DNA from: Escherichia phage vB_EcoA_fTuEco01
Direction: 5' to 3' (one strand)
Sequence record: MZ031013.1
Length of the DNA stretch: 44,320 nt
The position numbers were made by a program, and so were the translations under genes. This document shows positions 6,925 through 38,702 of the stretch, piece after piece. The notes under the pieces are model-generated. The model did not search any database. It was not told the DNA's origin and was given only the letters and a program-made list of their open reading frames with translations. Positions within the stretch are counted from its first letter, which is position 1; every line of letters begins with the position of its first letter.

Positions 6925-7065
6925 CGTCGGAGACGGGAAAGAAAGGGAAGATAAAGGATATAAAGGAAGTAATAGGTATTAAAGGTTATATAGGTTATCT
7001 AGGAATACCTAGGAATACCTATTACCTTCTTCCTTCCTCTTATTACCACTTAGAGGAAGGGCAGA
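6925..7065. other. Purine-rich / pyrimidine-rich AT-rich block with internal inverted repeat and tandem TAGGAATACC x2; candidate primary replication origin
   Basis: gggaaagaaagggaagataaaggatataaaggaagtaataggtatt ... aggaatacctaggaatacctattaccttcttccttcctcttattacc; the two halves are near reverse complements. The block is flanked by two phage promoters, as in the T7 primary origin downstream of gene 1. Confidence 0.45.
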
Positions 7066-7073
7066 CCTAGGTT

Positions 7074-7089
7074 GTCTCACATGTGAGAC
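7074..7089. repeat. Conserved palindrome GTCTCACATGTGAGAC, copy 2
   Basis: Perfect 16-bp palindrome, 5 nt upstream of the promoter at 7095. Confidence 0.8.
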
Positions 7090-7094
7090 TTCGT

Positions 7095-7115
7095 ATTTAC
7101 CGGACAGTATAGATA
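7095..7115 (+). promoter_or_regulatory. Phage RNAP promoter variant (ATTTACCGGACAGTATAGATA)
   Basis: Consensus match with C to G at -7 and a deviant initiating region. Confidence 0.6.
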
Positions 7116-7142
7116 AGATTAACTCACTTTGGAGATTTAACC

Positions 7143-7271
7143 ATGCGTAACTTTGAGAAGATGGCCCGTAAAGCTAACCGTTTTGACATAGAAGAAGGGC
7201 AGAAGAAAGGCAAGAAGCTGAATAAGCCTGTCCGTGACCGTACATCTAAACGCGCAGCGTGGGAGTTCTAA
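7143..7271 (+). CDS. Hypothetical small basic protein, 42 aa
   Basis: ATG at 7143, basic composition (MRNFEKMARKANRF...). Under 60 aa, so not in the track. Confidence 0.4.
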   Translation: MRNFEKMARKANRFDIEEGQKKGKKLNKPVRDRTSKRAAWEF

Positions 7272-7274
7272 GTT

Positions 7275-9263
7275 ATGGCTATTATTCAGAATGTACCGTG
7301 TCCTGCTTGCCAAAAGAACGGACATGATATTACTGGCAATCATTTAATGATCTTTGACGACGGGGCAGGATACTGTAACCGTGGTCACTTCCATGATAAC
7401 GGTAAACCTTATTACCACAAGCCAGGGGGTGGCATCGAGATAACCGAATTGCCTATTACTGGCAATATCAAATATACACCTTCTCAATTCAAAGAAATGG
7501 AGAAGGAAGGGAAGGTAAGCGACCCTAAGTTGCGCGCCATCGCACTTGGTGGTATGCGTATGAAAGACCGTTGGGAGGTTATGAATGAGCAAGAAAGGGC
7601 AGACCAAGAAGCAGAGTGGAAACTTGATGTTGAATGGTTCCTCACGCTTAAGCGTAAGAATCTTGTTTCCCGACACATTCGCGGCGACATTTGCGCATTG
7701 TATGATGTACGTGTCGGACACGATGAAGATGGTAGAGTCTCACGGCATTACTATCCACGCTTCGAGAAAGGTGAGCTAGTAGGCGCTAAGTGTCGCACAT
7801 TACCTAAAGACTTTAAGTTTGGTCATTTAGGTAAACTCTTTGGTATGCAAGATCTTTTCGGTATGAATACTTTGTCTCACGTGTTAGACAAGGGAAGACG
7901 AAAGGATTGCTTGCTTATTGTAGGTGGTGAACTTGATGCACTAGCAGCACAGCAAATGCTCCTTGATTCTGCCAAGGGTACTAAGTGGGAAGGCCAGCCT
8001 TACCATGTATGGTCTGTCAATAAAGGTGAGTCTTGCCTTGAAGAGATAGTACAGAACCGTGAACACATCGCCCAATTTAAGAAGATTATATGGGGTTTTG
8101 ATGGCGACGAGGTGGGGCAGAAGCAGAATCAGCAAGCGGCTCGCCTGTTTCCTGGCAAATCCTATATCCTTGAATACCCTTCTGGTTGCAAAGATGCTAA
8201 CAAGGCATTGATGGCTGGCAAGGCTAAAGAGTTTGTTGATGCTTGGTTTAATGCCAAGTCATCTGATGAAGTCTTTGGTAGCCAGATTAAATCTATCGCA
8301 TCTCAAAGGGATAAGCTCAAGGCTGCACGTCCAGAGCAAGGACTATCATGGCCTTGGCCTAAGCTGAACAAGGTAACGCTAGGTATTCGTAAGAACCAGC
8401 TTATCATTGTAGGTGCAGGTTCTGGTGTAGGTAAGACTGAGTTCCTCCGCGAAGTGGTTAAACATCTCATTGAAGAGCACGGTGAATCTGTAGGCATCAT
8501 TTCTACAGAAGACCCGATGGTCAAGGTGTCCCGTGCTTTTATCGGTAAGTGGATTGATAAGCGCATTGAGTTACCGCCAACCAATGACCCGAAAGAAGAC
8601 GGATACCGTGAGGTGTTCGACTACACCGAGGAAGAAGCTAACGCTGCCATTGATTATGTGGCTGATACAGGAAAGCTATTTGTGGCTGACCTAGAAGGCG
8701 ACTATTCTATGGAGAAGGTAGAGCAAACTTGCCTAGAGTTTGAGGCTATGGGCATTTCTAATATCATCATTGATAACTTAACGGGGATTAAATTAGATGA
8801 GCGTGCTTTTGGTGGGAAGGTTGGTGCACTTGATGAATGCGTCAAACGAATTGGTACTATCAAAGACCGACATGCGGTTACGATTTTCCTTGTCTCTCAC
8901 CTTACACGTCCTCCGGCAAACCGTACCCAACACGAAGAAGGTGGCGAAGTTATCCTTTCTGACTTCCGAGGCTCAGGCGCTATCGGATTCTGGGCATCTT
9001 ACGCCTTGGGGATTGAGCGTAATACAAGAGCTGAAACGCTTGATGAAAGGACTACCACGTACATCTCGTGTGTCAAAGACCGCGATCAAGGTATCTACAC
9101 TGGAACCAAGGTCATGCTTAAGGGTGACATTCAAACCGGACGTTTAATGGAACCACAAGCTAGAACAAGGTCATTTGATACAGGTGAAACAAGGCAGCAA
9201 GAGGTGCCTGATTTACCGGACACTATAGAAGAGACAACCTTTGACGATGAACAGGAGTTTTAA
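7275..9263 (+). CDS. DNA primase/helicase (T7 gene 4-like), 662 aa
   Basis: N-terminal zinc ribbon CPACQ...CNRGH; Walker A GAGSGVGKTEF; acidic C-terminus DDEQEF ending in Phe, as in T7 gp4 (...TDF). Confidence 0.95.
   Translation: MAIIQNVPCPACQKNGHDITGNHLMIFDDGAGYCNRGHFHDNGKPYYHKPGGGIEITELPITGNIKYTPSQFKEMEKEGKVSDPKLRAIALGGMRMKDRWEVMNEQERADQEAEWKLDVEWFLTLKRKNLVSRHIRGDICALYDVRVGHDEDGRVSRHYYPRFEKGELVGAKCRTLPKDFKFGHLGKLFGMQDLFGMNTLSHVLDKGRRKDCLLIVGGELDALAAQQMLLDSAKGTKWEGQPYHVWSVNKGESCLEEIVQNREHIAQFKKIIWGFDGDEVGQKQNQQAARLFPGKSYILEYPSGCKDANKALMAGKAKEFVDAWFNAKSSDEVFGSQIKSIASQRDKLKAARPEQGLSWPWPKLNKVTLGIRKNQLIIVGAGSGVGKTEFLREVVKHLIEEHGESVGIISTEDPMVKVSRAFIGKWIDKRIELPPTNDPKEDGYREVFDYTEEEANAAIDYVADTGKLFVADLEGDYSMEKVEQTCLEFEAMGISNIIIDNLTGIKLDERAFGGKVGALDECVKRIGTIKDRHAVTIFLVSHLTRPPANRTQHEEGGEVILSDFRGSGAIGFWASYALGIERNTRAETLDERTTTYISCVKDRDQGIYTGTKVMLKGDIQTGRLMEPQARTRSFDTGETRQQEVPDLPDTIEETTFDDEQEF
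9211..9231 (+). promoter_or_regulatory. Phage RNAP promoter embedded in the 3' end of the primase/helicase gene
   Basis: ATTTACCGGACACTATAGAAG is a perfect consensus; in frame it encodes LPDTIEE. Confidence 0.7.
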
Positions 9264-9424
9264 TGGAAATTATTAAACCAGTATTGAATATCGGTATTGA
9301 AATCCTATTCATGCTTGTGATCGCAGATTATGCTGCACGATATGGATTCAAGAAAGCTGTGAAACTTATCGTTGCATCTGGTTTTATGATGTCAATGTTC
9401 TTTATTGTAACACGCCTTATCTAG
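9263..9424 (+). CDS. Hypothetical small membrane protein, 53 aa, two hydrophobic segments
   Basis: TAATG stop-start overlap with the helicase gene; ILFMLVIADYA and SGFMMSMFFIV hydrophobic stretches. Confidence 0.45.
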   Translation: MEIIKPVLNIGIEILFMLVIADYAARYGFKKAVKLIVASGFMMSMFFIVTRLI

Positions 9425-9437
9425 TGTATTTATCAGG

Positions 9438-9461
9438 GCTTGTCTCACATGTGAGACAGGC
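9438..9461. repeat. Conserved palindrome (gcttGTCTCACATGTGAGACaggc), copy 3, extended stem followed by a T-rich run
   Basis: Core 9442..9457 is perfect; the flanks extend the stem to about 10 bp; followed by TCTTATT. Terminator-like. Confidence 0.7.
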
Positions 9462-9496
9462 TCTTATTAAGTACATTAAATAACTGGAGATTGATT

Positions 9497-10180
9497 ATGT
9501 ATAAATTAGTATTGAATGCAGGTGATTATGTTCGTAACATCAATGCAACCTCACGTAGATATCGTTGCCGTGGTACTGTGACTAATGTAAGTGAAAACAG
9601 CTACTATGTAGAGTACAGTAATGGTATTAGACAGGCTTATCAAAAGGAATCAGCACATAACTACCTTGAGAAGATTGGAGAGGTAAGCAATCAATGTAAG
9701 TGCGTACACGATGAGATTTGCGATAAGTGTGCCCGCCAGATGCATAAAATGCTATTATACCCTCTTCGCTATGGTGCTGGCATTCAAACCTTAGCAGAGG
9801 CATATGGCAAAGGTAAGACTACACTTAATAAAGATCGCCGCAATGTAATCACTGGTAAGACTCAAAGTGAAATGATTAAGCAGTGTGGCACTGCACTAGG
9901 TGTTACGCAGTTTAACACTCGTGCTCTTGGTAAATCCACAGGACAAGCTATGGTAAAGATTGGCGAAGCCATGATGCATCCAAATGTACCTGTGCGAATC
10001 ATGGATGTTGACCATGCAATCACAGAACACGGTACACCACGACGTGTAGCTAATAAGCATTTTGCCGACACTATAGAAGGTGTTATCCGTAAGCAAGGGT
10101 TGAAAGGTCTTCACCTCTTGAATGGTGAAGAATTACTGTATCTCCCTATTGTTACTGAAGAAACCTACGTGAATATTTAA
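9497..10180 (+). CDS. Hypothetical protein, 227 aa, Cys-cluster (CKCVHDEICDKC), possible zinc-binding / DNA-binding
   Basis: ATG at 9497 with GGAGA upstream (the track starts at a TTG at 9491). An embedded promoter-like core lies at 10058..10079. Confidence 0.55.
   Translation: MYKLVLNAGDYVRNINATSRRYRCRGTVTNVSENSYYVEYSNGIRQAYQKESAHNYLEKIGEVSNQCKCVHDEICDKCARQMHKMLLYPLRYGAGIQTLAEAYGKGKTTLNKDRRNVITGKTQSEMIKQCGTALGVTQFNTRALGKSTGQAMVKIGEAMMHPNVPVRIMDVDHAITEHGTPRRVANKHFADTIEGVIRKQGLKGLHLLNGEELLYLPIVTEETYVNI
10058..10079 (+). promoter_or_regulatory. Weak phage-type promoter embedded in coding sequence (TTTTGCCGACACTATAGAAGG)
   Basis: Core CGACACTATAGAAG is conserved, the upstream AT-rich recognition region is degenerate; in frame it encodes ADTIEG. 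Confidence 0.35.
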
Positions 10181-10190
10181 GGAGTTAATC

Positions 10191-10406
10191 GTGACTAAAG
10201 TTCTAATTTATAAACAACGAGGTCTTAAGGCTTATGCTATTGTAGCACCAAATGGTGTTAAAAAAGTAAGTTGTAAGCCTCTTGCAATAAAAGGTGCAGG
10301 TATGTCTGCTAACTTCCAATTGCAACTTTTTGGCAATTTCACAGAAGCGCAATTCCGCAATAAACATGAAGTTATTGGTTCTTTTATGGTGAAACATGCA
10401 GAATAA
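10191..10406 (+). CDS. Hypothetical protein, 71 aa
   Basis: GTG start 7 nt after an AAGGAG RBS. Confidence 0.5.
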   Translation: MTKVLIYKQRGLKAYAIVAPNGVKKVSCKPLAIKGAGMSANFQLQLFGNFTEAQFRNKHEVIGSFMVKHAE

Positions 10407-10605
10407 ACACAGCCTTAAGATGTTTGATGGTCACGAAGACCTGCAAGCACACATCACTAACCAAGCCTTCCTGTTTGCACAGTTAACTATGGCTGAAGCA
10501 AAGAAGAATAGCCTGACACGCGAGCAGGTTATCAAGGAGGCTACTTGGGAGCCACACCAAGGTAAATATATGGGCCATAAATTAACTGTAACACGCAGTC
10601 GATAA
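10396..10605 (+). CDS. Hypothetical protein, 69 aa
   Basis: ORF track entry; overlaps the upstream gene by 11 nt. Confidence 0.45.
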   Translation: MQNKHSLKMFDGHEDLQAHITNQAFLFAQLTMAEAKKNSLTREQVIKEATWEPHQGKYMGHKLTVTRSR

Positions 10606-10611
10606 GTCAAG

Positions 10612-10635
10612 GGTTGTCTCACACGTGAGACAGCC
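10612..10635. repeat. Conserved palindrome variant (ggttGTCTCACACGTGAGACagcc), copy 4
   Basis: Stem arms gtctca and tgagac are conserved, with a CACG centre variant. Confidence 0.65.
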
Positions 10636-10662
10636 TTTCATCATGTTGATTGGAGGTGCATT

Positions 10663-10770
10663 ATGCCACGTGATTATGATTCTGATTGGGACTACTATGA
10701 CTCAATGAATCCAAAACCCGAACGTTCAGATGATTACTACGAAACAGAGGCAATGTATGAAGATTACTGA
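10663..10770 (+). CDS. Hypothetical small acidic protein, 35 aa (MPRDYDSDWDYYDSM...)
   Basis: ATG at 10663 with a GGAGGTG RBS. Under 60 aa. Confidence 0.35.
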   Translation: MPRDYDSDWDYYDSMNPKPERSDDYYETEAMYEDY

Positions 10771-13303
10771 TTGGAAGAAGGAGGCAAAAGGCCGTATCCT
10801 AGTAATGGATGCGGAGGCTAAAGGTCTGCTTGATGCCATCCGATATGGACACCGCGAAGATGTGCATATCATTTGCTGCATGGACTTGCTTACTACTGAG
10901 GAGTTCCTCTTCTTTGACCCATATGAGATGCGTGACCCTGAAGCAAGGGAGCGCCTGAAGGAATGGGAAGGGCATCAAGATGGTGACTTGGTTGATGGTG
11001 TTAACTTCCTGAAGCACTGTGAAGCTATCGTGTCACAGAACTTCCTAGGATATGACGGTCTTCTCTTTGAGAAAGCATTCCCTGCTATCTGGAAAGGTTT
11101 TAACTATACCGAGAGGCGAGGCAAGGGCAGACTCCGCGCTGACCTGTGTCCTGTGCGAGTCATGGACACGCTGGTGATGAGTCGCCTGTTAAACCCCGAT
11201 AGGCGCCTCCCTCCGCAAGCATACGCCAAAGGTATGGGTAACGTCGCCCCTCACTCAATTGAGGCGCACGGCATTCGTATAGGCCGTTATAAGCCGGAGA
11301 ACGAGGATTGGTCTAAACTAACTGACCACATGGTACATCGTGTACGCGAGGACGTGGCGATAGGCCGTGACCTATTCCTCTGGCTATTTAACGGAGAATG
11401 GACGGAGCACAAACGCCGTGGCGTGAATAAACGCACTGGCCTAGGTATTGAGACAGCCTTCCACATGGAGTCCATTGTGGCGCTGGAGATGAGCCGTCAG
11501 GCCGAGCGTGGATTCCGTCTGGATATAGATAAAGCATTAGCACGATGCGAGGAATTGGACGCTAAGATTGATGAGACAGTCGCAGCGTTCCGTCCGCACA
11601 TGCCTATGCGTATCAAGTCTAAACCTTTTAAACCGGAAGAAAAGAATGAAGTATGCCAACGCGCAAATGAGTATGGAGCTAGCAACAATATACCTACTGT
11701 TCTTGACCCCTCTCACTTTCTTCACGCAGAGAGACGAGGGGATCGCAAGACAGTATGGAGTGTCACTACTAAGTCTGGTGATTGGTCGGCTAGCGTCAAG
11801 AAAGACTTTCCTCACCTTAGAGGAAACCGTAATGACACGCCAAGCATCAAGTGGATTGGCGCTTACTCGCCTGTTACTTTCGAAGAAATTCCCTTGGGTA
11901 ACAGGGATACAGTTAAGCAAGTGCTCTATGATTATGGATGGAAAGGTGTTGAATTTAACGATACCGAGCAAGCGCATCTCGATGAGCATGGCGTATTACC
12001 CAAGCCTTGGAGTGGGAAGATAAATGAAAAGTCCCTTACTTTATGGCAAGAGAGAGCCGCACGTGAAGGTAAAACAGTCCCTGATTGGTGCTTGGGTATC
12101 GCTGCATGGTACATACTCGTATCCCGTCGTGGTCAGATCCTCAACCGTGGTGACGTTGAAGCCTTCGACCAGAAGGGGGTGTGGCCTTCGCAAGCTGGTA
12201 TACGAAAGTGTCGCGGCCTTGTACCTGTAGCATTTAACAAGGAGTTAGGAATCAATGCGCAGCAATACTACGAAAGGTACGGATGCTGGCCTACGTCAGA
12301 CAAGGATGACGGAGAATGGCGTGTGCCAGCTATTGCTATTAGTATTGGAACTTCTACGTTCCGTATGCGTCATCGTAACGTGGTTAATATTCCTGCCCGT
12401 GGTTTGTATCCTTTACGTGATTTATTCATAGCCGGTAAAGGTAAGCTAATCCTTGGTTGTGATGGTGCTGGTCTTGAACTACGTGTCCTGTCTCACTTCA
12501 TGAATGACCCTGAATATCAAGATATTGTACTGCATGGTGACATTCACACCCATAATCAAATGAAGGCTGGTCTTCCTAAGCGTGACATGGCGAAGACATT
12601 TATATATGCCTTCCTATATGGGTCTGGTATAGCTAACCTTGCAGCAGTATGTGGTGTTACTGAGGAAGAAATGGAGGAAGTTGTGGCAAGATTTGAGGTT
12701 GAACTACCATCTCTTGCACGTCTTCGTGAGAATGTTATCGCACAAGGTAACAAGTTTGGCTACCTACAAGCACCTGATGGTCATTGGGGTCGCATCCGTA
12801 TGTCTGGTGGTGAACTTAAAGAGCACACTATGCTTAACGTACTACTACAGATGACTGGTTCTCTGTGTATGAAATACGCATTGGTCAGAGCGTTTGCAGT
12901 GATGCGCAAGGAAGGTGTGGCCTTAGATAGCATGGGAAACCCTTGCGGTATAGCTAACGTGCACGATGAAATCCAGATGGAAGTCCCTGAAGATGAGGTC
13001 TTGTATCTCAACTACGACTTGCCTTTCACCTTAGAAGGGTTCGAAACAGAGAAGGCTGCTGTGAAAGCAGTGTTCGATGCAGAGGAGAAACGTGTTCATG
13101 TAGATTCTGAAGGACGTATGTGGTCTGCTGCAAATCTCGTTAGCGTTGATGCTGATGCTGGTGTACTTCATTGCCAGCGTCGCTATCACCGTGCAGGGCA
13201 TATCATTGCCGACGCAATGACTTGGGCGGGTCAGTATCTGAAGATGCGTTGTCCGATGGCAGGTGAGTATAAGATTGGTGCAAGTTGGAAGGAAACACAC
13301 TGA
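10757..13303 (+). CDS. DNA polymerase, family A (T7 gene 5-like), about 848 aa
   Basis: 3'-5' exonuclease motif (ILVMDAEAKG), pol motif A (DGAGLELRVLSHF), motif B (KTFIYAFLYGSG) and motif C (VHDEIQMEV). Start chosen at ATG 10757 (MKITDW); the track starts upstream at 10730. Confidence 0.93.
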   Translation: MKITDWKKEAKGRILVMDAEAKGLLDAIRYGHREDVHIICCMDLLTTEEFLFFDPYEMRDPEARERLKEWEGHQDGDLVDGVNFLKHCEAIVSQNFLGYDGLLFEKAFPAIWKGFNYTERRGKGRLRADLCPVRVMDTLVMSRLLNPDRRLPPQAYAKGMGNVAPHSIEAHGIRIGRYKPENEDWSKLTDHMVHRVREDVAIGRDLFLWLFNGEWTEHKRRGVNKRTGLGIETAFHMESIVALEMSRQAERGFRLDIDKALARCEELDAKIDETVAAFRPHMPMRIKSKPFKPEEKNEVCQRANEYGASNNIPTVLDPSHFLHAERRGDRKTVWSVTTKSGDWSASVKKDFPHLRGNRNDTPSIKWIGAYSPVTFEEIPLGNRDTVKQVLYDYGWKGVEFNDTEQAHLDEHGVLPKPWSGKINEKSLTLWQERAAREGKTVPDWCLGIAAWYILVSRRGQILNRGDVEAFDQKGVWPSQAGIRKCRGLVPVAFNKELGINAQQYYERYGCWPTSDKDDGEWRVPAIAISIGTSTFRMRHRNVVNIPARGLYPLRDLFIAGKGKLILGCDGAGLELRVLSHFMNDPEYQDIVLHGDIHTHNQMKAGLPKRDMAKTFIYAFLYGSGIANLAAVCGVTEEEMEEVVARFEVELPSLARLRENVIAQGNKFGYLQAPDGHWGRIRMSGGELKEHTMLNVLLQMTGSLCMKYALVRAFAVMRKEGVALDSMGNPCGIANVHDEIQMEVPEDEVLYLNYDLPFTLEGFETEKAAVKAVFDAEEKRVHVDSEGRMWSAANLVSVDADAGVLHCQRRYHRAGHIIADAMTWAGQYLKMRCPMAGEYKIGASWKETH

Positions 13304-13420
13304 TGGACAGGTTTGATATTGTTTGCCTATTCTCCACCTTCTTTCTTATATTCCTTATGCTTGCTTGCTATGGAAGTATGCGATTAGATATACCTGATGA
13401 AGAGGAGGGTTACGATTGAT
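13304..13420 (+). CDS. Hypothetical hydrophobic peptide, 38 aa
   Basis: TGATG overlap with the polymerase stop; FSTFFLIFLMLACY transmembrane-like segment. Confidence 0.3.
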
Positions 13421-13517
13421 GCAGGCATCTTTTATTATTCTTGGAGTCATATTATTTATGGTAGTATTCTGGGCTTTCTCTGGCATTGACCCAGATTGTG
13501 ATGGTAACTACGACTGA
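13419..13517 (+). CDS. Hypothetical hydrophobic peptide, 32 aa
   Basis: TGATG overlap with the previous ORF; IILGVILFMVVFWAF transmembrane-like segment. Confidence 0.3.
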   Translation: MQASFIILGVILFMVVFWAFSGIDPDCDGNYD

Positions 13518-13585
13518 GTTATACTCAAGGTCACTTACGAGTGGCCTTTATGAATAACTTATTCCTACTTATTTTGTCTAACATG

Positions 13586-13606
13586 ATTTACTGGACACTA
13601 TAGAAG
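13586..13606 (+). promoter_or_regulatory. Phage RNAP promoter (ATTTACTGGACACTATAGAAG)
   Basis: Perfect consensus. Confidence 0.8.
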
Positions 13607-13607
13607 G

Positions 13608-13672
13608 AAAGCCTAGGTAATCTAGGTTTATAAGGTAGTATAGGTAATTAAGTAAATATAGGAGATATAAAT
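13608..13672. repeat. AT-rich TAGGTWA-repeat block downstream of a promoter
   Basis: gcctaggtaatctaggtttataaggtagtataggtaattaagtaaatataggagat; similar blocks occur at 6961..7020 and 38650..38702. Confidence 0.5.
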
Positions 13673-14050
13673 ATGTCTATGGTAACTACTCTGGTATTCG
13701 TGGCTCAATACTTTCGTGGTCTTGCTAATAAGTTCAAGTCCAAGGCTATCAAAGCTATTGAGGCTCGCATCGAAGCAGTACAGGCAGAGCAAGTTAAAGT
13801 TGAAGAACATCGTAGTTCTCAAATGATTGACTGTCATAACCGCTACTATGCATCTCGTGATGAACTAAATGCACGTCAAGTCAAAGAGGTAGAAGATATG
13901 CTGGCACGTCACCAGCAAGAGCGTGACAGCCTGAAAGCTGAATTTGAAGAGAACAAGGCATCAATTGCCCTTGTAAATCAAGCTGCATCTGACAGCCTGA
14001 AGAAAGAGATTGTTATGCTGGAAATAGAACTGGACAACTTGACTAAATAA
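13673..14050 (+). CDS. Hypothetical coiled-coil protein, 125 aa
   Basis: Strong T7 gene-10-like RBS (ataggagatataaatATG); heptad-like charged sequence. Confidence 0.6.
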   Translation: MSMVTTLVFVAQYFRGLANKFKSKAIKAIEARIEAVQAEQVKVEEHRSSQMIDCHNRYYASRDELNARQVKEVEDMLARHQQERDSLKAEFEENKASIALVNQAASDSLKKEIVMLEIELDNLTK

Positions 14051-14056
14051 GGAGTT

Positions 14057-14356
14057 ATGATGGAAGAAGTGATTCAAGCTAAACATGTAGGTATCATCTT
14101 TCGTGATCTAGAGCAGCGTAAAGTTGCAGGTCACACTCGTCTGGCTAAAGAAGACGATACAGCAATCACTACTGTGGAACAAGCAGATGCCTATCGTGGT
14201 CCAGAGTTTACTCAAGGTGAAACTTGTCATCAATTGAGCCTTTCGCTTTGTGACACTATGGCTAGTGTAAATGTACAAGAGGTTGAAGATGGTGAATGTG
14301 TTAGTTATGTCTACCCTCTCGATACTATTGCACGTATTAAGGTAGTTCATAAGTAA
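14057..14356 (+). CDS. Hypothetical protein, about 98-99 aa
   Basis: AAGGAG RBS; ATG at 14057 or 14060. Confidence 0.55.
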   Translation: MMEEVIQAKHVGIIFRDLEQRKVAGHTRLAKEDDTAITTVEQADAYRGPEFTQGETCHQLSLSLCDTMASVNVQEVEDGECVSYVYPLDTIARIKVVHK

Positions 14357-14375
14357 TTACTGGACACTATAGAAC
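14355..14375 (+). promoter_or_regulatory. Phage RNAP promoter (AATTACTGGACACTATAGAAC)
   Basis: Consensus match; overlaps the stop codon of the upstream ORF. Confidence 0.7.
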
Positions 14376-14433
14376 AATAGGTCGGCTTAGTTCGGCCTAT
14401 GATTGTGTAGTGTAACAATAGGAGACTAAATAA

Positions 14434-15240: not shown

Positions 15241-15249
15241 GGAGAACGG

Positions 15250-15468
15250 ATGAAAGTACAAATCGTAACTCTGCATTGCAAGAAAGGAATCACCACACTT
15301 GGCGGCAATACTTTTCACTCCTTCTCTGAAGGGGAGACATACGCCGACCTTCACTATATCTGGCGTGACGGGCAGCACGTGGTGAACTACAGCGACCCTG
15401 CGACTGGTAAACGCCACGGCGTGTCGCTTCCGGCGCATGACATTGCTCAGGTGAACACAGTTTTATAA
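15250..15468 (+). CDS. Hypothetical protein, 72 aa
   Basis: ORF track entry with a GGAGAACGG RBS. Confidence 0.5.
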   Translation: MKVQIVTLHCKKGITTLGGNTFHSFSEGETYADLHYIWRDGQHVVNYSDPATGKRHGVSLPAHDIAQVNTVL

Positions 15469-15469
15469 A

Positions 15470-15485
15470 GTCTCACGTGTGAGAC
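15470..15485. repeat. Conserved palindrome variant GTCTCACGTGTGAGAC, copy 5
   Basis: Arms are conserved with a CGTG centre; 15 nt upstream of the promoter at 15501. Confidence 0.7.
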
Positions 15486-15500
15486 AAATCGGTGTCCGGT

Positions 15501-15523
15501 ATTTACTGGACACTATAGAAGAG
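15501..15523 (+). promoter_or_regulatory. Phage RNAP promoter (ATTTACTGGACACTATAGAAGAG)
   Basis: Perfect consensus. Confidence 0.8.
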
Positions 15524-15573
15524 AAGAATTTTAATCGGCGATAATGCCATAACCAACAAAAGGAGAATTTAAT

Positions 15574-31896: not shown

Positions 31897-31910
31897 TACC
31901 TAACTCAAGG

Positions 31911-31932
31911 CTTGTCTCACATGTGAGACAGG
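31911..31932. repeat. Conserved palindrome (cttGTCTCACATGTGAGACagg), copy 6, followed by TCTTTA
   Basis: Perfect 16-bp core at 31914..31929, lying between two internal virion protein genes. Confidence 0.7.
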
Positions 31933-31960
31933 TCTTTATGATAGGCACTATGGAGGAACT

Positions 31961-34900
31961 ATGGAACAAGATATTAAGACTAATTGGGCTGGATATGTCC
32001 AGTCTACTCCTGAGCCGTTTTCTATTGAGGCGGCTCCGGTATCGGCTCCTACGATACGCCAGCGTAATGAGTTACAAGAGCAAGTTCTTGAAGCCAAAGC
32101 TGATGCGGACATCTTAGGTGCTGTAGGTGCTGCCTTCCAGAATGAATGGTTGGCATTCGGAGGTAAGCGATGGTATGACCGTGCCACTGCTGATTTCACA
32201 CCCCAACCTGACTTTGAAATCCAACCAGAGCAACGTGAAGCTCTTCGCTTCAAATACGGAACGGATATGATGCAGACAATCACTGAGGGTGTTCGTTCTG
32301 AGGATGAATTAAACTTCCGTATTCAGAATGCTGATGAAGACCTTGAGCGCAATAAGCGCATTGCTCAGGCTGGATGGGCTGGCTCTGTGGCAACGATTGG
32401 CGCTGCTGTGCTTGACCCAGTGGGTTGGGTTGCCTCTATCCCAACTGGCGGTGCAGCCAAAGTCGGCCTCGTAGGTCGTGCCGTGCGTGGAGCTATCGCC
32501 GCTGGCGTGAGCAATGCCGCTATTGAATCCGTGTTAGTACAAGGCGACATGACTCGTGATTTAGATGACATTATGGTAGCACTAGGCTCCGGTATGGCTA
32601 TGGGTGGCGTTATTGGCGCTGTAGCGCGTGGTAGGGCCACTAAGCTCAGTGAGCAAGGAGATGACAGGGCTGCGAGTGTTGTGCGCAGTGCAGACGCAGG
32701 GGACCGCTATGTGCGTGCTGTTGCTGATGACAGTATCGGTGCGATGCGTGTTAAGGGTGAAGAGGTACTCACTGAGGGTGCATTTGATATCTCTAGCAAA
32801 GGTGAAGATTTGCTGAAAACCCTACAGCGGGAAGGTAATGCAATTGATATGACACCTCGCCGCTGGGCCGGAACTATGTCTGCCCTTGGGACTGTCGTGC
32901 ACTCCTCTCAGGATGCTAGTGTTCGTGGCCTCGGTGCTCGCCTGTTTGAGTCTCCGCAAGGTTTAGGTATGCAAAAGGCATCTGCCAGTCTTATGCAGAA
33001 TACCAACTTGAATCGACTGAAGTCTGCTGATATGAACCGTTTCAATGACGGGTTTGACTTATGGCTCAAAGAGAATAATATCAATCCAGTTGCAGGCCAT
33101 ACTAACTCTCACTATGTGCAACAATATAATGAGAAGGTATGGGAAGCTGTACGCATCGGTATGGATGAGTCTACGCCTAAGTCTATCCGTATGGCAGCAG
33201 AGGGACAGCAAGCTATGTATCGTGAAGCATTAGCATTACGTCAACGCTCTGGTGAAGCTGGGTTTGAAAAGGTTAAAGCAGATGATAAGTACATGCCTGA
33301 TATTTTTGACAGTATGAAGGCTCGTCGTCAATTTGGTATGCACGATAAGGAGGACATCATTGAGCTATTCTCTCGTGCATACCAGAATGGTTCTCGTAAG
33401 GTTCCAAAGGAAGTGGCTGATGAGATTGCACGTGCACAAGTAAACCGTGTTGTGGATGCTACTCTGACAGGACGTATGAGTTTCGAAAAGGCTATGTCTG
33501 GTCAGACTAAAGCAGAGTATGAAGCAATAATGCGCAAGGCAGGCTTCAGTGATGAAGAAATTGAAAAGATGGTAGAAGCTCTGGATAATAAAGAAACCAG
33601 AGATAATATCTCTAACCGAGCTAAGATGAGTTTAGGCTTAGATGTTACTCAAGAGTACAATGGCATTCGTATGCGTGACTTTATGAATACTAACGTGGAA
33701 GAGTTAACAGATAACTACATGAAGGAAGCGGCAGGTGGTGCTGCCTTGGCTCGTCAAGGTTTCTCTACCTATCAGGCTGCACTTAATGCAATTGACCTTG
33801 TAGAGCGAAATGCACGAAATGCAGCTAAAGATACAAAAGCACACGCACAATTCGAAGCAGAGTCTGCTAAGATTCGTCAATCAGAGCCTGATTACAAGAA
33901 GGCACAAGCGAAGATTGAAGAGTTAAAGAAGCGACTTAAATTGAAAGAGAAAGACGAAGCAGCGGGTCTGGCTATTGATGAGGAAATCCGTCAGATGCGA
34001 GAAGGGCTTCGCTTGATTATGGGTAAATCTATCGATGCAGACCCACAGGCTTTATCTACTAAAATGCTGCGTCGTGGTCGTGACATTACAGGTGTACTTC
34101 GCTTAGGTCAGATGGGCTTCGCACAGCTAGGTGAACTTGCTAACTTCATGGGTGAGTTTGGTATTGCTGCAACCACTATAGCTTTAGGTAAGCAATTCCG
34201 CTTTACATCTAAGGCTTTGCGGAGCGGTGATGGCTTCTTCCGAGATAAGAACTTGGCAGAAGTAGAGAGGATGGTAGGTTACATTGGTGAGGATAACTGG
34301 CTAACAACCAAGGGTGCACGTCCAGATGAGTTTGGTGATGTAACCACAGTAAGAGGGATGATGGCTCACTTTGACCAATCCATGAACTCAATACGTCGTG
34401 CTCAGACCAACCTATCACTCTTCCGCATGGCACAGGGTTCTCTGGAGCGAATGACCAATAGGCAAATAGCTTTGTCTTTCATTGACCACCTTGAAGGCAA
34501 GAAGATTATTCCTCAGAAGAAACTGGAGGAACTTGGTCTTACTCAGGAGTTCATGACTAATCTACAGAAGCACTATGATGCTAACTCTAAAGGTTCTGGC
34601 TTGCTTGGCTTTGATACAATGCCTTATGCCATGGGTGAAACTTTAGCTAATGCTATTCGTCGTAAGTCAGGTCTAATTATCCAACGTAACTTCATTGGTG
34701 ATGAAGGTATCTGGATGAACAAAGCACTAGGTAAGACATTTGCACAGCTTAAGTCATTCTCTCTTGTATCTGGTGAGAAGCAATTTGGTCGAGGGATTCG
34801 CCACGATAAAATTGGTCTTGCTAAGAAGACAGCTTACGGGTTTGCTTTGGGTTCAATAGTGTATGCGGCAAAAGCCTATGTGAACTCTATTGGGCGAGAA

Positions 34901-35269
34901 GACCAAGATGAATATTTGGAAGAGAAGTTATCGCCTAAAGGGTTGGCCTTTGGTGCAATGGGTATGATGAGTACAACTGCTGTATTTAGTCTAGGTGGAG
35001 ATTTCTTAGGTGGCCTAGGTGTTCTACCTTCTGAGTTAGTACAATCCCGTTATGAGGCTGGCTTTCAGACTAAGGGTTTGATAGACCAAATACCACTAGT
35101 AGGTGTTGGTCAAGATGCATATCGTTTAGCAGATTCTATAACTAAATATGCAGAGGGTGATACAGAAGGTGTAGATGTGGCACGTAGGGCTTTACGCTTA
35201 GTGCCTCTAACTAATGTAATAGGAATCCAGAACGCATTGCGTTATGGCTTAGATGAACTGGAGGATTGA
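31961..35269 (+). CDS. Internal virion protein, largest core/ejection protein (T7 gp16-like role), 1102 aa
   Basis: GGAGGA RBS; size and position; no lytic transglycosylase motif recognised in it. Confidence 0.7.
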   Translation: MEQDIKTNWAGYVQSTPEPFSIEAAPVSAPTIRQRNELQEQVLEAKADADILGAVGAAFQNEWLAFGGKRWYDRATADFTPQPDFEIQPEQREALRFKYGTDMMQTITEGVRSEDELNFRIQNADEDLERNKRIAQAGWAGSVATIGAAVLDPVGWVASIPTGGAAKVGLVGRAVRGAIAAGVSNAAIESVLVQGDMTRDLDDIMVALGSGMAMGGVIGAVARGRATKLSEQGDDRAASVVRSADAGDRYVRAVADDSIGAMRVKGEEVLTEGAFDISSKGEDLLKTLQREGNAIDMTPRRWAGTMSALGTVVHSSQDASVRGLGARLFESPQGLGMQKASASLMQNTNLNRLKSADMNRFNDGFDLWLKENNINPVAGHTNSHYVQQYNEKVWEAVRIGMDESTPKSIRMAAEGQQAMYREALALRQRSGEAGFEKVKADDKYMPDIFDSMKARRQFGMHDKEDIIELFSRAYQNGSRKVPKEVADEIARAQVNRVVDATLTGRMSFEKAMSGQTKAEYEAIMRKAGFSDEEIEKMVEALDNKETRDNISNRAKMSLGLDVTQEYNGIRMRDFMNTNVEELTDNYMKEAAGGAALARQGFSTYQAALNAIDLVERNARNAAKDTKAHAQFEAESAKIRQSEPDYKKAQAKIEELKKRLKLKEKDEAAGLAIDEEIRQMREGLRLIMGKSIDADPQALSTKMLRRGRDITGVLRLGQMGFAQLGELANFMGEFGIAATTIALGKQFRFTSKALRSGDGFFRDKNLAEVERMVGYIGEDNWLTTKGARPDEFGDVTTVRGMMAHFDQSMNSIRRAQTNLSLFRMAQGSLERMTNRQIALSFIDHLEGKKIIPQKKLEELGLTQEFMTNLQKHYDANSKGSGLLGFDTMPYAMGETLANAIRRKSGLIIQRNFIGDEGIWMNKALGKTFAQLKSFSLVSGEKQFGRGIRHDKIGLAKKTAYGFALGSIVYAAKAYVNSIGREDQDEYLEEKLSPKGLAFGAMGMMSTTAVFSLGGDFLGGLGVLPSELVQSRYEAGFQTKGLIDQIPLVGVGQDAYRLADSITKYAEGDTEGVDVARRALRLVPLTNVIGIQNALRYGLDELED

Positions 35270-36231
35270 TGAGTTATACTTTCACAGAACATATAGCCAA
35301 CGGTACGCAAGTAACCTATCCCTTTAGATTTGCTGGCAGGGATAAAGGCTATCTTCGTGCCTCAGATGTGATAGTGGAATCTCTTCAAGGTAACACTTGG
35401 ATTGAGGTTACATCTGGCTGGCAATTAACTGGTACGCATCAAATCACTTTTGATGTAGCACCTGTTGCAGGTTTGAAGTTCCGTATTCGAAGGGAAGTAC
35501 AAAAGGAATATCCATACGCTGAGTTTGACCGTGGTGTTACCTTGGATATGAAGTCTTTAAATGGCTCTTTCATTCATATACTGGAGATTACACAGGAGTT
35601 ACTTGATGGGTTTTATCCAGAAGGATACTTCATTAAGCAGAATGTAAGCTGGGGCGGCAATAAGATTACTGACCTAGCTGATGGTGAGAATCCAAAAGAT
35701 GCAGTAAATAAATCACAGCTAGATGCTATCGACAAGAAGCATACTGATTGGAACTCTGCACAAGATATAGAGATTGCTGGTATTAAGAGAGGAATGGTGT
35801 CTGGTGTATCTCATCGCACTATTCCTTGGTATATGGTCGCCTCCGGTGGAGAGCAAATCATTCGACCACCTTACTCATTTGATGATGCTATGGTGTTTAT
35901 AAACGGTGTATTCCAGCATGAACTAGCAGGTGCAGTATCAGTGGGGTATGATGTTATAACCCTGTCCGAGCCATTACAGGCTGGGGATGAAGTTTATGTG
36001 CTTATCGGTAGTCGCTTAACCCCACCTACAAGTGCGGATACTATCCTCTTTACACAAGCAGTGAGTGAAGGTACACAATCTATCGACATTGTAACGGCTT
36101 TCCAACGTCTTGATGTATACTTGGATGGCCTGTATCAACCTAATAATGCTTATGAAATCGTAGGGTCTACTATCACTTTCAGTGAGCCATTACCTGAGTG
36201 TGTCGTAAGTATGAAGCTACAACTAGTGTAA
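35269..36231 (+). CDS. Tail-fiber-like adaptor protein (homologous to the N-terminal tail-attachment domain of T7 gp17), 320 aa
   Basis: TGATG overlap; pattern ...GGNKITDLADGENPKDAVNKSQL resembles T7 gp17 ...RIVNLANAVDDRDAVPFGQL. Too short to be a full fibre, so probably anchors the tailspikes. Confidence 0.65.
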   Translation: MSYTFTEHIANGTQVTYPFRFAGRDKGYLRASDVIVESLQGNTWIEVTSGWQLTGTHQITFDVAPVAGLKFRIRREVQKEYPYAEFDRGVTLDMKSLNGSFIHILEITQELLDGFYPEGYFIKQNVSWGGNKITDLADGENPKDAVNKSQLDAIDKKHTDWNSAQDIEIAGIKRGMVSGVSHRTIPWYMVASGGEQIIRPPYSFDDAMVFINGVFQHELAGAVSVGYDVITLSEPLQAGDEVYVLIGSRLTPPTSADTILFTQAVSEGTQSIDIVTAFQRLDVYLDGLYQPNNAYEIVGSTITFSEPLPECVVSMKLQLV

Positions 36232-36240
36232 GGAGGTGAG

Positions 36241-36435
36241 ATGATTAACTCCGAACTGGTAGATAGTGGTGTGAAGCTGGCGCCACCTGCATTAGTATCA
36301 GGTGGGTACTTCCTCGGTATCAGTTGGGATAATTGGGTGTTAATAGCAACATTCATTTATACCGTGTTGCAAATTGGAGACTGGTTTTATACCAAGATTA
36401 AACTATGGAGGAGGAGCCGTGAGCGTACACAATAA
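36241..36435 (+). CDS. Holin-like small membrane protein, 64 aa
   Basis: AAGGAGGTG RBS; hydrophobic WVLIATFIYTVLQIGDWFY segment and highly basic C-terminus KIKLWRRSRERTQ; position equivalent to T7 gene 17.5. Confidence 0.5.
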   Translation: MINSELVDSGVKLAPPALVSGGYFLGISWDNWVLIATFIYTVLQIGDWFYTKIKLWRRSRERTQ

Positions 36436-36718
36436 ACATGCAGCTACGGAAGACGAGGTTGGCATTCTACATGGTGCTATTACCAAAATCTTTAATAAGA
36501 AAGCACAGGCAATACTGGACACTATAGAAGAAGACCCAGATGCAGCACTGCATTTAGTCTCTGGTAAAGACATTGGAGCTATGTGTAAGTGGGTTCTTGA
36601 TAATGGTATTACCGCTACACCCGCTGCACAGCAGGAGGAGTCCAAGCTATCTAAGCGCCTCAAGGCTATCCGAGAGGCATCAAGTGGCAAGATTATTCAA
36701 TTCACTAAGGAGGATTGA
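36419..36718 (+). CDS. Putative terminase small subunit, 99 aa
   Basis: GTG start 5 nt after GGAGGAGG; lies immediately upstream of, and is translationally coupled (TGATG) to, the large terminase gene. Confidence 0.45.
   Translation: MSVHNKHAATEDEVGILHGAITKIFNKKAQAILDTIEEDPDAALHLVSGKDIGAMCKWVLDNGITATPAAQQEESKLSKRLKAIREASSGKIIQFTKED
36510..36530 (+). promoter_or_regulatory. Phage RNAP promoter embedded in the putative small terminase gene
   Basis: CAATACTGGACACTATAGAAG; in frame it encodes ILDTIEE. Confidence 0.6.
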
Positions 36719-38616
36719 TGGCTAAGGCAAGAGAATCACAAGCGGAGGCTCTTGCCAGATGGGAGATGCTACAGGAGTTACAGCAGACCTTTCCTTACAC
36801 AGCGGAAGGTTTGCTTCTCTTTGCAGACACAGTTATTCATAACTTAATTGCAGGCAACCCTCATCTGATTCGTATGCAGGCTGATATCTTGAAGTTCCTA
36901 TTCTACGGACACAAGTATCGCCTCATCGAAGCGCCTCGTGGTATCGCTAAGACAACACTATCAGCAATCTATACAGTATTCCGTATCATTCATGAACCGC
37001 ATAAGCGTATCATGGTTGTATCCCAAAACGCCAAGCGAGCAGAGGAAATCGCAGGTTGGGTAGTTAAAATCTTCCGGGGCTTAGACTTTCTTGAGTTTAT
37101 GCTGCCGGATATCTACGCTGGGGACCGTGCATCCGTTAAGGCGTTTGAGATTCATTACACCCTACGTGGTAGTGATAAGTCTCCTTCTGTATCCTGTTAC
37201 TCAATCGAAGCAGGTATGCAGGGTGCTCGTGCTGATATTATTCTAGCGGATGACGTAGAGTCGATGCAGAATGCTCGTACGGCAGCGGGCCGTGCCTTGC
37301 TTGAGGAACTGACTAAGGAGTTTGAATCTATCAACCAGTTTGGGGACATCATTTACCTTGGTACACCTCAGAACGTAAACTCTATCTATAACAACCTACC
37401 TGCTCGTGGTTACTCTGTTCGTATCTGGACTGCGCGTTACCCTTCAGTAGAGCAAGAGCAATGTTATGGCGACTTCCTTGCACCTATGATTGTTCAAGAT
37501 ATGAAGGACAACCCAGCACTTCGCTCAGGGTACGGGTTGGATGGTAATAGTGGTGCACCTTGTGCCCCTGAAATGTATGATGATGAAGTCCTGATTGAGA
37601 AGGAAATCTCTCAGGGTGCTGCTAAGTTCCAGCTTCAGTTCATGCTTAACACTCGCATGATGGATGCTGACAGATACCCATTACGCCTGAACAATCTAAT
37701 CTTCACCTCGTTTGGTACAGAGGAAGTCCCTGTGATGCCTACGTGGAGTAATGATTCCATAAACATCATTGGTGATGCACCTAAGTATGGTAACAAGCCT
37801 ACGGATTTCATGTACAGACCTGTAGCTCGCCCATACGAATGGGGTGCTGTCTCCCGCAAGATTATGTATATTGACCCTGCGGGTGGTGGTAAGAACGGAG
37901 ATGAGACGGGTGTAGCCATCGTATTCCTGCACGGCACATTCATTTATGTGTATCAGTGCTTTGGTGTACCTGGCGGATACCGAGAGTCGTCCCTGAATCG
38001 CATTGTGCAGGCCGCAAAGCAGGCGGGTGTTAAAGAGGTATTCATTGAGAAGAACTTTGGTCATGGCGCGTTTGAGGCGGTAATTAAGCCGTACTTTGAA
38101 CGAGAGTGGCCTGTAACTCTGGAAGAGGATTACGCCACCGGACAGAAAGAGTTGCGTATCATTGAGACGCTGGAGCCGCTCATGGCAGCCCATAGGCTTA
38201 TCTTCAATGCAGAGATGGTGAAGTCAGACTTTGAGTCGGTACAGCACTATCCGCTTGAACTACGCATGTCCTACAGTCTTTTCAATCAAATGTCGAACAT
38301 AACGATTGAGAAGAACAGCCTCCGGCACGATGACCGCCTAGACGCCCTGTATGGCGCTATACGGCAATTAACTTCTCAGATAGACTATGACGAGGTTACA
38401 CGGATTAATCGCCTCAGAGCGCAGGAGATGCGCGATTACATCCATGCTATGAATACACCTCATCTACGCAGGGCAATGCTATATGGAGATTACGGTACTG
38501 AGCGAAGAGTGACCAACACTTCCGTAGCGATGCAGCAGCGAGTTTACGGGCAGAACTACCGAAATAAATCGGCAAGCAGAAATACACTTTCTGCAAGGAT
38601 TTCAAGGACTTATTAA
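36718..38616 (+). CDS. Terminase large subunit (T7 gene 19-like), 632 aa
   Basis: Walker A-like APRGIAKTT, a Walker B-like hydrophobic stretch followed by DD (ADIILADDVES), and a C-terminal nuclease region; AAGGAGG RBS. Confidence 0.9.
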   Translation: MAKARESQAEALARWEMLQELQQTFPYTAEGLLLFADTVIHNLIAGNPHLIRMQADILKFLFYGHKYRLIEAPRGIAKTTLSAIYTVFRIIHEPHKRIMVVSQNAKRAEEIAGWVVKIFRGLDFLEFMLPDIYAGDRASVKAFEIHYTLRGSDKSPSVSCYSIEAGMQGARADIILADDVESMQNARTAAGRALLEELTKEFESINQFGDIIYLGTPQNVNSIYNNLPARGYSVRIWTARYPSVEQEQCYGDFLAPMIVQDMKDNPALRSGYGLDGNSGAPCAPEMYDDEVLIEKEISQGAAKFQLQFMLNTRMMDADRYPLRLNNLIFTSFGTEEVPVMPTWSNDSINIIGDAPKYGNKPTDFMYRPVARPYEWGAVSRKIMYIDPAGGGKNGDETGVAIVFLHGTFIYVYQCFGVPGGYRESSLNRIVQAAKQAGVKEVFIEKNFGHGAFEAVIKPYFEREWPVTLEEDYATGQKELRIIETLEPLMAAHRLIFNAEMVKSDFESVQHYPLELRMSYSLFNQMSNITIEKNSLRHDDRLDALYGAIRQLTSQIDYDEVTRINRLRAQEMRDYIHAMNTPHLRRAMLYGDYGTERRVTNTSVAMQQRVYGQNYRNKSASRNTLSARISRTY

Positions 38617-38636
38617 TTACTGGACACTATAGAAGG
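38614..38636 (+). promoter_or_regulatory. Phage RNAP promoter (AATTACTGGACACTATAGAAGG)
   Basis: Consensus match overlapping the terminase stop. Confidence 0.75.
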
Positions 38637-38649
38637 AAGGCCCAGATAA

Positions 38650-38702
38650 TAAGAGAAAATAATAGGTAATATATAGGTTAACCTAGGTTATATAGGTATG
38701 CC
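38650..38702. repeat. AT-rich TAGGTWA-repeat block downstream of a promoter
   Basis: aataggtaatatataggttaacctaggttatataggtatgcc; the same motif family as at 6961..7020 and 13608..13672. Confidence 0.5.

Follow-up and report, generated by a model that had tools for sequence, protein, structure and literature searches.

Why do three of the phage promoters of Escherichia phage vB_EcoA_fTuEco01 (MZ031013.1) lead into short, AT-rich blocks built from regularly spaced TAGGT-like repeats? The window analysed here is the complete 44,320-base genome of this K1E/K1-5-like Vectrevirus (Autographiviridae, Molineuxvirinae, SP6 group), whose + strand holds all of the genes together with 14 promoter matches to the consensus ATTTACTGGACACTATAGAAG. 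The original prediction, made without database searches, described blocks downstream of three promoters and offered three roles for them: secondary replication origins, binding sites for a host nucleoid protein, or untranslated-region elements tuning expression of the genes downstream. Block 1 lies after the RNA polymerase gene, block 2 in the leader of the gp15 homologue and block 3 after the large terminase gene. The arrays are real and conserved, and of the phages examined only those of the SP6 group (Molineuxvirinae) have them. Tentatively, and at rather less than an even chance, we read the three blocks as origin modules primed by transcription, in which features of the transcript would aid primer formation, and so as the equivalent in the SP6 group of the leaders at T7 replication promoters. 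The arrays are apparently undescribed in the accessible full text, an earlier description being possible in the genome papers (Dobbins 2004, Scholl 2004).

Repeat arrays in three promoter leaders

Direct reading finds the three repeat blocks at the places predicted (Table 1). The promoters at 6901 and 13586 begin where they had been placed, and the third begins at 38615 rather than 38614; the location given for block 1 (6961..7020) is also correct, but its left edge has to be moved, the first unit lying already at 6954. Block 1 is a non-coding unit of ~175 nt between the tandem promoters at 6901 and 7095, with a purine-only tract (6937-6953) directly 5' of array 1, and the promoter A transcript opens with 90 nt that contain 73% purine and 6% C. 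The next start codon is more than 200 nt from array 1, with promoter B in between. The period of array 2 is exactly 9, and its last unit, TAGGAG at 13659, is the Shine-Dalgarno sequence of a 125-aa gene (the gp15 homologue) starting at 13673. Array 3 includes the palindromes TAGGTTAACCTA and AACCTAGGTT.

We defined a chain as at least four WAGGW units with gaps of at most 14 nt, and on the + strand of the window such chains occur at the three blocks only. Enrichment was measured against dinucleotide shuffles of the genome (300 for clusters) and by separate shuffling of each block. TAGGT occurs 76 times on the + strand, relative to 48.0 +/- 6.6 in the shuffles, and there are three clusters of at least three TAGGT within 35 nt, with 0.023 expected and a maximum of one in 300 shuffles; two of these are blocks 2 and 3, and the third is at 34992-35016. 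Within-block shuffles give P<0.0002 for TAGGT in block 3, P=0.03 in block 2 and P=0.09 in block 1, with P=0.003 for WAGGW in the last of these. An unbiased k-mer comparison ranks TAGG, TAGGT and ATAGGT top in the ~200 nt of the blocks, into which 9 of the 76 genomic TAGGT and half of the genomic ATAGGT (6/12) fall. The within-block shuffles show that the motif goes beyond AT-richness. The cluster at 34992-35016 is a coding TAGGTGG repeat (Leu-Gly-Gly) in the gene for the internal virion protein (1102 aa); it lacks the AT-richness of the arrays and has no relation to them.

Conservation of the arrays

We compared the whole genomes of SP6, K1-5, UAB_Phi78, Klebsiella phage K1-ULIP33, Proteus phage PM116 and Erwinia phage Era103, and added ~60 IMG/VR loci around the three block sites. 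The block 1 region is 99.8-95% identical to that of many K1E/K1-5-like phages. In SP6, K1-5, UAB_Phi78, K1-ULIP33 and PM116 the + strand chains of at least four units occur only at the same syntenic sites. The first site follows the first of the tandem promoters 3' of the RNA polymerase gene, the second is the leader of the gp15 homologue (125 aa), and the third comes after the post-terminase promoter. Arrays are likewise present at the syntenic sites of the IMG/VR relatives, the one exception among the relatives examined being PM116, which has no gp15 and no block 2; the refuting condition named in the original prediction, absence of the blocks from syntenic promoters of related phages, is thus not borne out. 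In every array-bearing genome examined the arrays are on the transcribed strand and lie 12-45 nt 3' of a phage promoter (beginning at +12 to +37 in the window), and they are retained in lineages with altered promoter sequence. There are no AGGT chains in T7 and none after the polymerase gene of a Gajwadongvirus. An IMG/VR scan for four TAGGT at 9-10 nt was uninformative, the matches listed being perfect 9-nt coding tandem repeats (collagen-like etc.) in unrelated viruses.

Units collected from distinct sequences, in sets of 155, 51 and 108, are spaced mostly 9 or 10 nt apart and have the consensus (a/c)TAGGTA(a/g)T, the base after GG being T in 63-78% and A in 20-28%. The cores are kept and the spacers vary, and single units are gained or lost at differing positions between phages; close isolates differ by whole units, with the window having one TAGGAATACC unit more than K1-5. 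Leaders 1 and 3 are 0.61-0.66 identical to those of SP6 and K1-ULIP33, relative to 0.40 at flanking fourfold-degenerate sites and 0.42-0.45 for shuffled leaders. For block 2 the identity to SP6 is 0.84, a value matched by the silent sites of gp15 (0.85), so the module has likely been exchanged recently and its identity says little about constraint. This silent-site identity, which is 0.40 elsewhere, and an upstream neighbour that varies among close relatives suggest a recent horizontal exchange of the gp15 module (13673-14050) with its promoter and leader. The sequence 5' of the block 2 promoter is mosaic.

In Era103 about six units follow the polymerase promoter. After the terminase promoter, between the large terminase gene and the next gene, an array at 40240-40432 has 22 units, which make up six 27-nt repeats, TAGGTAGGCC-CAGGTTATC-CAGGTCTA. 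Both arrays are followed by a near-identical hairpin, CCCTCTTCAGAGGG, and each of the terminal repeats carries a short AGG chain (127-153 and 45295-45321). One reading frame is open throughout the 22-unit array, where gene annotation is absent.

Comparison with T7 replication origins

T7 replication starts at phi1.1A/phi1.1B, the primary origin, and phiOR and phi6.5 are among the secondary origins (PMC8373140). The order at block 1 (RNA polymerase gene, promoter A, array, promoter B, gene 1.1 homologue) matches that at phi1.1A/phi1.1B, and the gene 1.1 homologue fixes the synteny of block 1 with the T7 primary origin. Like T7 phiOR, block 3 comes after the large terminase gene, and block 2 is without a T7 counterpart. 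The probability that three promoters picked at random from the 14 include both of the T7-homologous positions is ~0.03 (12/364).

Duplex stability provides a second line of comparison. Nearest-neighbour stability was scanned in 60-bp windows and ranked genome-wide, with T7 as the positive control. The four least stable T7 windows lie just 3' of phiOL, phi1.1B, phi6.5 and phiOR (z 3.5-4.5), other promoters having z of at most 3.2, and the measure thus recovers the known origins. In the vB_EcoA_fTuEco01 genome the array promoters have z values of 3.3-3.8 and the other eleven at most 2.6. The blocks rank 1, 3 and 4 genome-wide here and in SP6, and 1-3 in K1-ULIP33, with array 2 being the least stable 60-bp duplex of the window. 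The array leaders also stand apart from most others in composition, with 61-75% purine and 5-11% C over their first 80-90 nt. The blocks and the T7 origins (phi1.1A/phi1.1B, phiOR, phi6.5 and phiOL) share a promoter followed within ~100 bp by the least stable duplexes, a tandem-promoter position between RNA polymerase gene and gene 1.1, a post-terminase position, and the presence of several sites per genome. According to a secondary source (PMC4837284), Dobbins et al. 2004 proposed a bidirectional SP6 origin at the DNA polymerase gene; the end of that gene in SP6 is ~440 bp before block 2.

From the observed anatomy, conservation, T7 synteny and stability ranking we infer that DNA synthesis may start at the blocks. 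Each proposed module has a phage-polymerase promoter and a non-coding leader whose non-template strand, purine-rich and cytosine-poor, carries (T/A/C)AGG(T/A) every 9-10 nt. In phages of E. coli, Salmonella and Klebsiella this context is, in addition, where the genome melts most easily, and a stable hairpin with a pyrimidine- or T-rich tail comes after the array in blocks 1 and 3. A possible course of events is that the phage RNA polymerase reads into the array, that the negatively supercoiled and weakly paired DNA opens behind it, and that the purine-rich transcript either remains in the hybrid or comes free at the hairpin while its 3' end is still annealed, after which the phage DNA polymerase and primase-helicase would take over, as at the T7 primary origin. 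The AGGT units could contribute as hybrid anchors, through a hairpin in the displaced strand, or as iteron-like sites for a putative protein. Block 1 would be the primary origin and blocks 2 and 3 secondary origins. Secondary origins are thereby the best supported of the three roles first offered, through T7-like position and stability rank, as an analogy rather than a proof.

Several observations weigh against an origin function or set the blocks apart from the T7 origins. The blocks carry a 9-10 nt periodic motif, whereas T7 origins have no AGGT arrays and no comparable periodic motif, with a weak CTTAA enrichment at most. Origins of the T7 type need no sequence-specific initiator, so that AGGT every 9-10 nt, the most conserved feature of the blocks, is unexplained by the T7 model. 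The AT-rich part of the T7 primary origin follows the second promoter and here lies between the tandem promoters. The Era103 arrays have ordinary GC (0.44-0.51; stability z 0.8-2), with AT-rich sequence only after the hairpin, and easy melting is therefore not a conserved array property. R-loop propensity, calculated as RNA-DNA hybrid minus DNA duplex energy, misses the T7 origins, picks only block 1, and was set aside as a measure. The cumulative GC, AT, purine and keto skews give no consistent origin signal; in three genomes of the SP6 group the detrended GC skew reaches its minimum ~0.5 kb past block 1, but the same measure is 3.6 kb off the T7 origin. A role at the RNA level accounts at least as well for the covarying hairpins, for the terminator-like hairpin and for the Shine-Dalgarno sequence that continues array 2 in phase, and we found no replication data for this phage group in the accessible literature.

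Primase recognition tells in the same direction. The T7 AT-rich region has one gene 4 primase site, whereas the arrays are without the SP6 primase site, 5'-GCA-3' (PMC2034472): by direct reading neither GCA nor TGC occurs in arrays 1 and 2. A single TGC stands just 3' of array 3, at 38698-38700, and SP6 does not share it. The repeat core has no GCA, and we therefore reject the units as primase sites.

Iteron origins of plasmids and phage lambda offer a partial likeness, with direct repeats in one orientation and variable number beside an easily melted stretch. Iterons are ~17-22 bp long, however, and the array units are 9-10 bp and always inside a transcript. To our knowledge no initiator gene has been described in the SP6 group, and among the window proteins scanned no candidate for an iteron-type initiator was recognised by sequence.

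Transcript structure and RNA-level explanations

The features of the three blocks are collected in Table 1.

Table 1. Features of the three array-bearing promoter regions of vB_EcoA_fTuEco01 (all on the + strand)
Block	Feature	Coordinates	Strand	Remarks
1	Phage promoter A (ATTTACCGGACACTATAGGAT)	6901..6921	+	Consensus match with 3 mismatches; kept in all relatives; transcript start G 6918
1	5' hairpin CCGTC-GGA-GACGG	6924..6936	+	~+7 to +19 of promoter A transcript; RNA folding
1	Array 1, seven (T/A)AGG(T/A) units	6954..7014	+	AAGGA 6954, 6963; TAGGT 6973; AAGGT 6982; TAGGT 6991; TAGGA 7000, 7010; spacing 9, 10, 9, 9, 9, 10 nt
1	Long imperfect hairpin	6963..7031	+	Units 6963-6980 pair with pyrimidine arm 7014-7031 (AATACCTATTACCTTCTT); fold z -2.5
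1	Second hairpin CCTTCCTCT...AGAGGAAGG	7032..7060	+	RNA folding
1	16-nt palindrome GTCTCACATGTGAGAC and T-rich tail	7074..7089	+	Weak terminator-like hairpin closing the non-coding unit
1	Phage promoter B, tandem with A	7095..7115	+	Consensus match
1	T7 gene 1.1 homologue, 42 aa	7143..7271	+	Pfam Phage_1_1, E 2.8e-14, 53.7 bits (cut-off 21)
2	Phage promoter	13586..13606	+	Perfect consensus; transcript start 13603
2	Array 2	13604..13664	+	AAGGA 13604; TAGGT 13614, 13623; AAGGT 13632; TAGGT 13641; degenerate AAGTA 13650; TAGGAG 13659
3	Phage promoter 3' of large terminase gene	38615..38635	+	Transcript start 38632
3	Array 3, four TAGGT units	38663..38697	+	38663, 38674, 38684, 38693; spacing 11, 10, 9 nt
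3	GC-rich hairpin GGGTGTAC-TCCT-GTACACCC and T/C-rich tail	38710..38729	+	Terminator-like
3	Pyrimidine-rich tract (TATTCCTTACTACCTTACTAT...)	38730..38773	+	Shine-Dalgarno TAGGAG 38761-38766; ATG 38774 of 91-aa gene, K1-5 gene 41 family

The 5' hairpin of block 1 covaries clearly, its third stem pair being G:C, A:U, C:G or U:A among relatives, with the variant CCATC-GAA-GATGG in distant ones. Array 1 pairs with its pyrimidine arm better than shuffles do (duplex z -3.4), and a comparable long hairpin is present at block 1 in all eleven folded representatives; it is built from different units in each lineage, so its covariation is not scorable, and the RNAalifold consensus for blocks 1 and 3 consists of the 5' hairpin and small local stems only. 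The block 3 hairpin ranks second among the terminator-like sites of the + strand between 20 and 40 kb, and a hairpin always follows array 3 in relatives, with sequence varying by lineage. Folds of block 2 show neither hairpin nor terminator.

The covariation of the leader hairpins argues that RNA or single-strand structure is under selection, and explanations in which the arrays act as RNA are, taken jointly, about as likely as an origin module. In one of these, the (Y/W)AGGU units of the nascent leader would form a multivalent platform or attenuator to which a host or phage RNA-binding protein binds in several copies or subunits, as TRAP acts on (G/U)AG and HutP on UAG. Binding would decide whether transcription passes the terminator-like hairpin of blocks 1 and 3, whether ribosomes reach their binding site in blocks 2 and 3, or both; we regard this as doubtful but worth serious consideration. 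The strict + strand orientation, the location of the arrays always within a transcript, and the order of promoter, array, stable hairpin, T/C-rich tail and Shine-Dalgarno sequence that blocks 1 and 3 share with the two Era103 arrays are all consistent with it, as are the covarying hairpins, the narrow spacing of 9-10 nt, and the turnover of units with expansion to 22 in Era103. The Era103 arrays are not AT-rich, which argues that the motif itself is kept. The Bacillus TRAP and HutP leaders likewise have regular, short, purine-rich repeats that contain UAG, and blocks 1 and 3 have a terminator-like hairpin, but the spacing in the Bacillus leaders is 5-7 nt, and transcription here is by a single-subunit phage polymerase, for which we know of no attenuation of this kind.

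Other findings speak against a platform. Among the 15 small or uncharacterised window proteins scanned (Pfam, PHROGs), neither a TRAP- or HutP-like protein nor any RNA-binding family was found; a PDB sequence search with gp41 and gp15 gave no match, and the AlphaFold model of gp41 (predicted local distance difference test, pLDDT, 65) is too poor for a fold search. The units are not consistently single-stranded or in loops of the predicted folds, block 2 has no hairpin, and array 1 is remote from its start codon, with a promoter intervening. For the earlier suggestion of untranslated-region elements that tune expression, the evidence is similarly divided: the arrays are always transcribed and the adjoining hairpins covary, but the units are poor mimics of a Shine-Dalgarno sequence and array 1 is more than 200 nt from the next start codon.

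That mimicry bears on another explanation, in which weak Shine-Dalgarno-like or A/U-rich repeats would recruit 30S or S1, serve as standby sites or as a 5' stabiliser for fast-made, ribosome-free transcripts, and raise translation. Each allowed unit (AGGU, AGGA, AAGG) has 4-5 nt of complementarity to the 16S 3' tail ACCUCCUUA, array 2 runs in phase into the real Shine-Dalgarno TAGGAG, and the leaders are C-poor and purine-rich. The pairing is weaker than that of a true site, however: the four TAGGT units of block 3 all fall short of -4 kcal/mol against the anti-Shine-Dalgarno sequence and the others lie at about -4 to -6.4, relative to -7.3 for the true block 2 sequence, and strong Shine-Dalgarno mimicry is rejected on this ground. 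A G after GGT, which would lengthen the pairing, is present in at most 6% of units. Complementarity to the remainder of 16S rRNA is not above shuffles (P 0.17-0.95), and epsilon-like pairing outside the anti-Shine-Dalgarno is similarly rejected, the longest complements (9, 8 and 7 nt) being no better than shuffles. The most highly expressed gene, that of the capsid (promoter 23748), is without an array, and block 1 is distant from any start codon, all of which makes a ribosomal role unlikely.

The blocks might also yield abundant short non-coding RNAs that titrate a defence nuclease or an RNA-binding factor of the host as decoys or sponges, in a CsrB-like or pseudo-ToxI-like manner. Promoter, array and terminator-like hairpin would together give RNAs of ~95 nt (block 3) and ~175 nt (block 1) from strong promoters, the 22 units of Era103 form six higher-order repeats of 27 nt, and many AGG repeats in a short non-coding transcript recall the CsrB/RsmZ sponges. 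In those sponges, however, GGA cores are presented in hairpin loops, whereas 63-78% of the units here are GGU and they are not in loops; CsrA requires GGA, and a CsrA sponge is rejected since most units end in GGU. Block 2 lacks a terminator, and a search of Rfam (CsrB, CsrC, RsmX/Y/Z, ToxI or any other family) gave nothing at the gathering threshold or at E<=1. The sub-threshold Rfam hits are plant microRNA precursor models only, on both strands, and reflect the block 1 hairpin. We consider a sponge quite improbable.

Finally, the arrays could be RNase III processing sites of the T7 type, with block 1 at the position of T7 R1.1. Every relative has a long irregular hairpin at block 1, between tandem promoters after gene 1 as in R1.1. 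There is no sequence similarity to R1.1, though, blocks 2 and 3 lack such a stem, and pairing of array 3 with the downstream pyrimidine tract, which we discarded as a candidate structure, is not above composition-matched shuffles in six phages. A separate and clearly T7-like R1.1-type hairpin lies at 13519-13556, where it has the conserved sequence (CTCAAGGTC...GTGGCCTTTATGA) and is unlike the arrays; T7-type sites within the arrays are rejected, and we hold this explanation to be the most improbable of those considered. The hairpin at 13519-13556 (ACTCAAGGTCACTTACGAGTGGCCTTTATGA) is just 5' of the promoter at 13586, has flanks near-identical to the T7 R1.1 region (ACTCAAGGTCATTCGCAAGAGTGGCCTTTATGA), and is present only in relatives that share that upstream segment.

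A possible double-stranded DNA operator

The arrays may alternatively act as duplex DNA, as an operator or architectural array. Its ligand would be a phage repressor or else a host protein of the nucleoid-associated or response-regulator type, bound head-to-tail to repeats about one helical turn apart and blocking or modulating the polymerase, in the manner of a lac operator placed after a T7 promoter. Direct repeats of single orientation, a period of 9-10 bp and variable number would suit such an array, as would a position at +12 to +90 for a roadblock, and direct repeats ~10-11 bp apart are typical of sites of the OmpR/PhoB family, for example those of CpxR (GTAAA-N5-GTAAA) and ArcA. With a mean of 9.2-9.8 bp, and a value of exactly 9 in block 2, the period nonetheless drifts off one face of B-DNA, and the motif is unlike any consensus known to us, including those of IHF, Fis and H-NS, the nucleoid proteins that the original prediction named for footprinting. 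Selection would disfavour the blocking of three phage promoters by a host protein unless the phage made use of that protein, and no DNA-binding protein was identified among the window proteins scanned. An operator is in our view as unlikely as a ribosomal role.

Neighbouring genes and other repeats

The 125-aa gp15 homologue looks like an N-terminally anchored coiled-coil protein, and its database name, 'polysaccharide chain length determinant', is a mis-annotation. Directly 3' of block 3 (38774-39355) are genes for two paralogous ~92-aa proteins with the database name 'acetyl-CoA acetyltransferase' (PHROG 2725), which looks like an annotation artefact because the proteins have no Pfam or PDB match; their homologues are found only on phage contigs of about 44 kb. 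Array 3 is adjoined by GCCTTAGT (38700-38707), a single copy of a CTTAGT-type repeat that is kept in most relatives. Both genome ends (150-700 and 44030-44290) are rich in CCTTAGT, GCTTAGT and ACTTAGT, with 19 copies of CCTTAGT relative to 6.4 expected, and these resemble the CCTAAAG arrays beside the T7 terminal repeats.

The palindrome GTCTCACATGTGAGAC that closes block 1 has eight genomic copies at up to two mismatches (588, 6883, 7074, 7874, 9442, 10616, 15470 and 31914), relative to 0.01 expected. Copies lie directly 5' of the promoters at 6901 and 7095 and 16 nt 5' of that at 15501, the copy at 31914 has R1.1-like flanks (CTCAAGG...CTTTATGA), and variants (GTCCAACATGTTGGAC and GTCTCACACGTGAGAC) are at equivalent places in K1-ULIP33, SP6 and Era103. 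The palindrome may be a promoter-coupled terminator, pause or processing hairpin. In the more distant Klebsiella phage vB_Kp_Z1, other repeats (GTAAGCTATA, three copies, and CTAGTACACTAGACTAGAC) follow the RNA polymerase gene at 2440-2800, and promoter-region arrays may therefore be a wider, lineage-specific feature of the Autographiviridae.

Implications

The origins of SP6, K1E, K1-5 and many relatives among the therapeutic phages are unmapped as far as we could find, and the three modules are precise candidates for them. The AGGT motif is common to phages of Escherichia, Salmonella, Klebsiella, Citrobacter, Proteus and Erwinia with diverged promoters and is absent from T7, which points to a group-specific step of DNA or RNA recognition, outside the T7 paradigm. 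The arrays might be multivalent sites for a putative oligomeric protein, either an iteron-binding initiator or a TRAP/HutP-like RNA regulator or sponge target, a possibility that we hold at about the same low probability as the RNA platform. Were the protein an initiator, SP6-group origins would be initiator-dependent, unlike those of T7; with either an initiator or a TRAP/HutP-like regulator, the phages would have a form of control not described in the T7 supergroup, in which the number of repeats is free to expand. The modules are in any case unstable, minisatellite-like spots at which unit number shifts between close isolates, and they are relevant to phage engineering and to replication or expression systems based on the SP6 polymerase.

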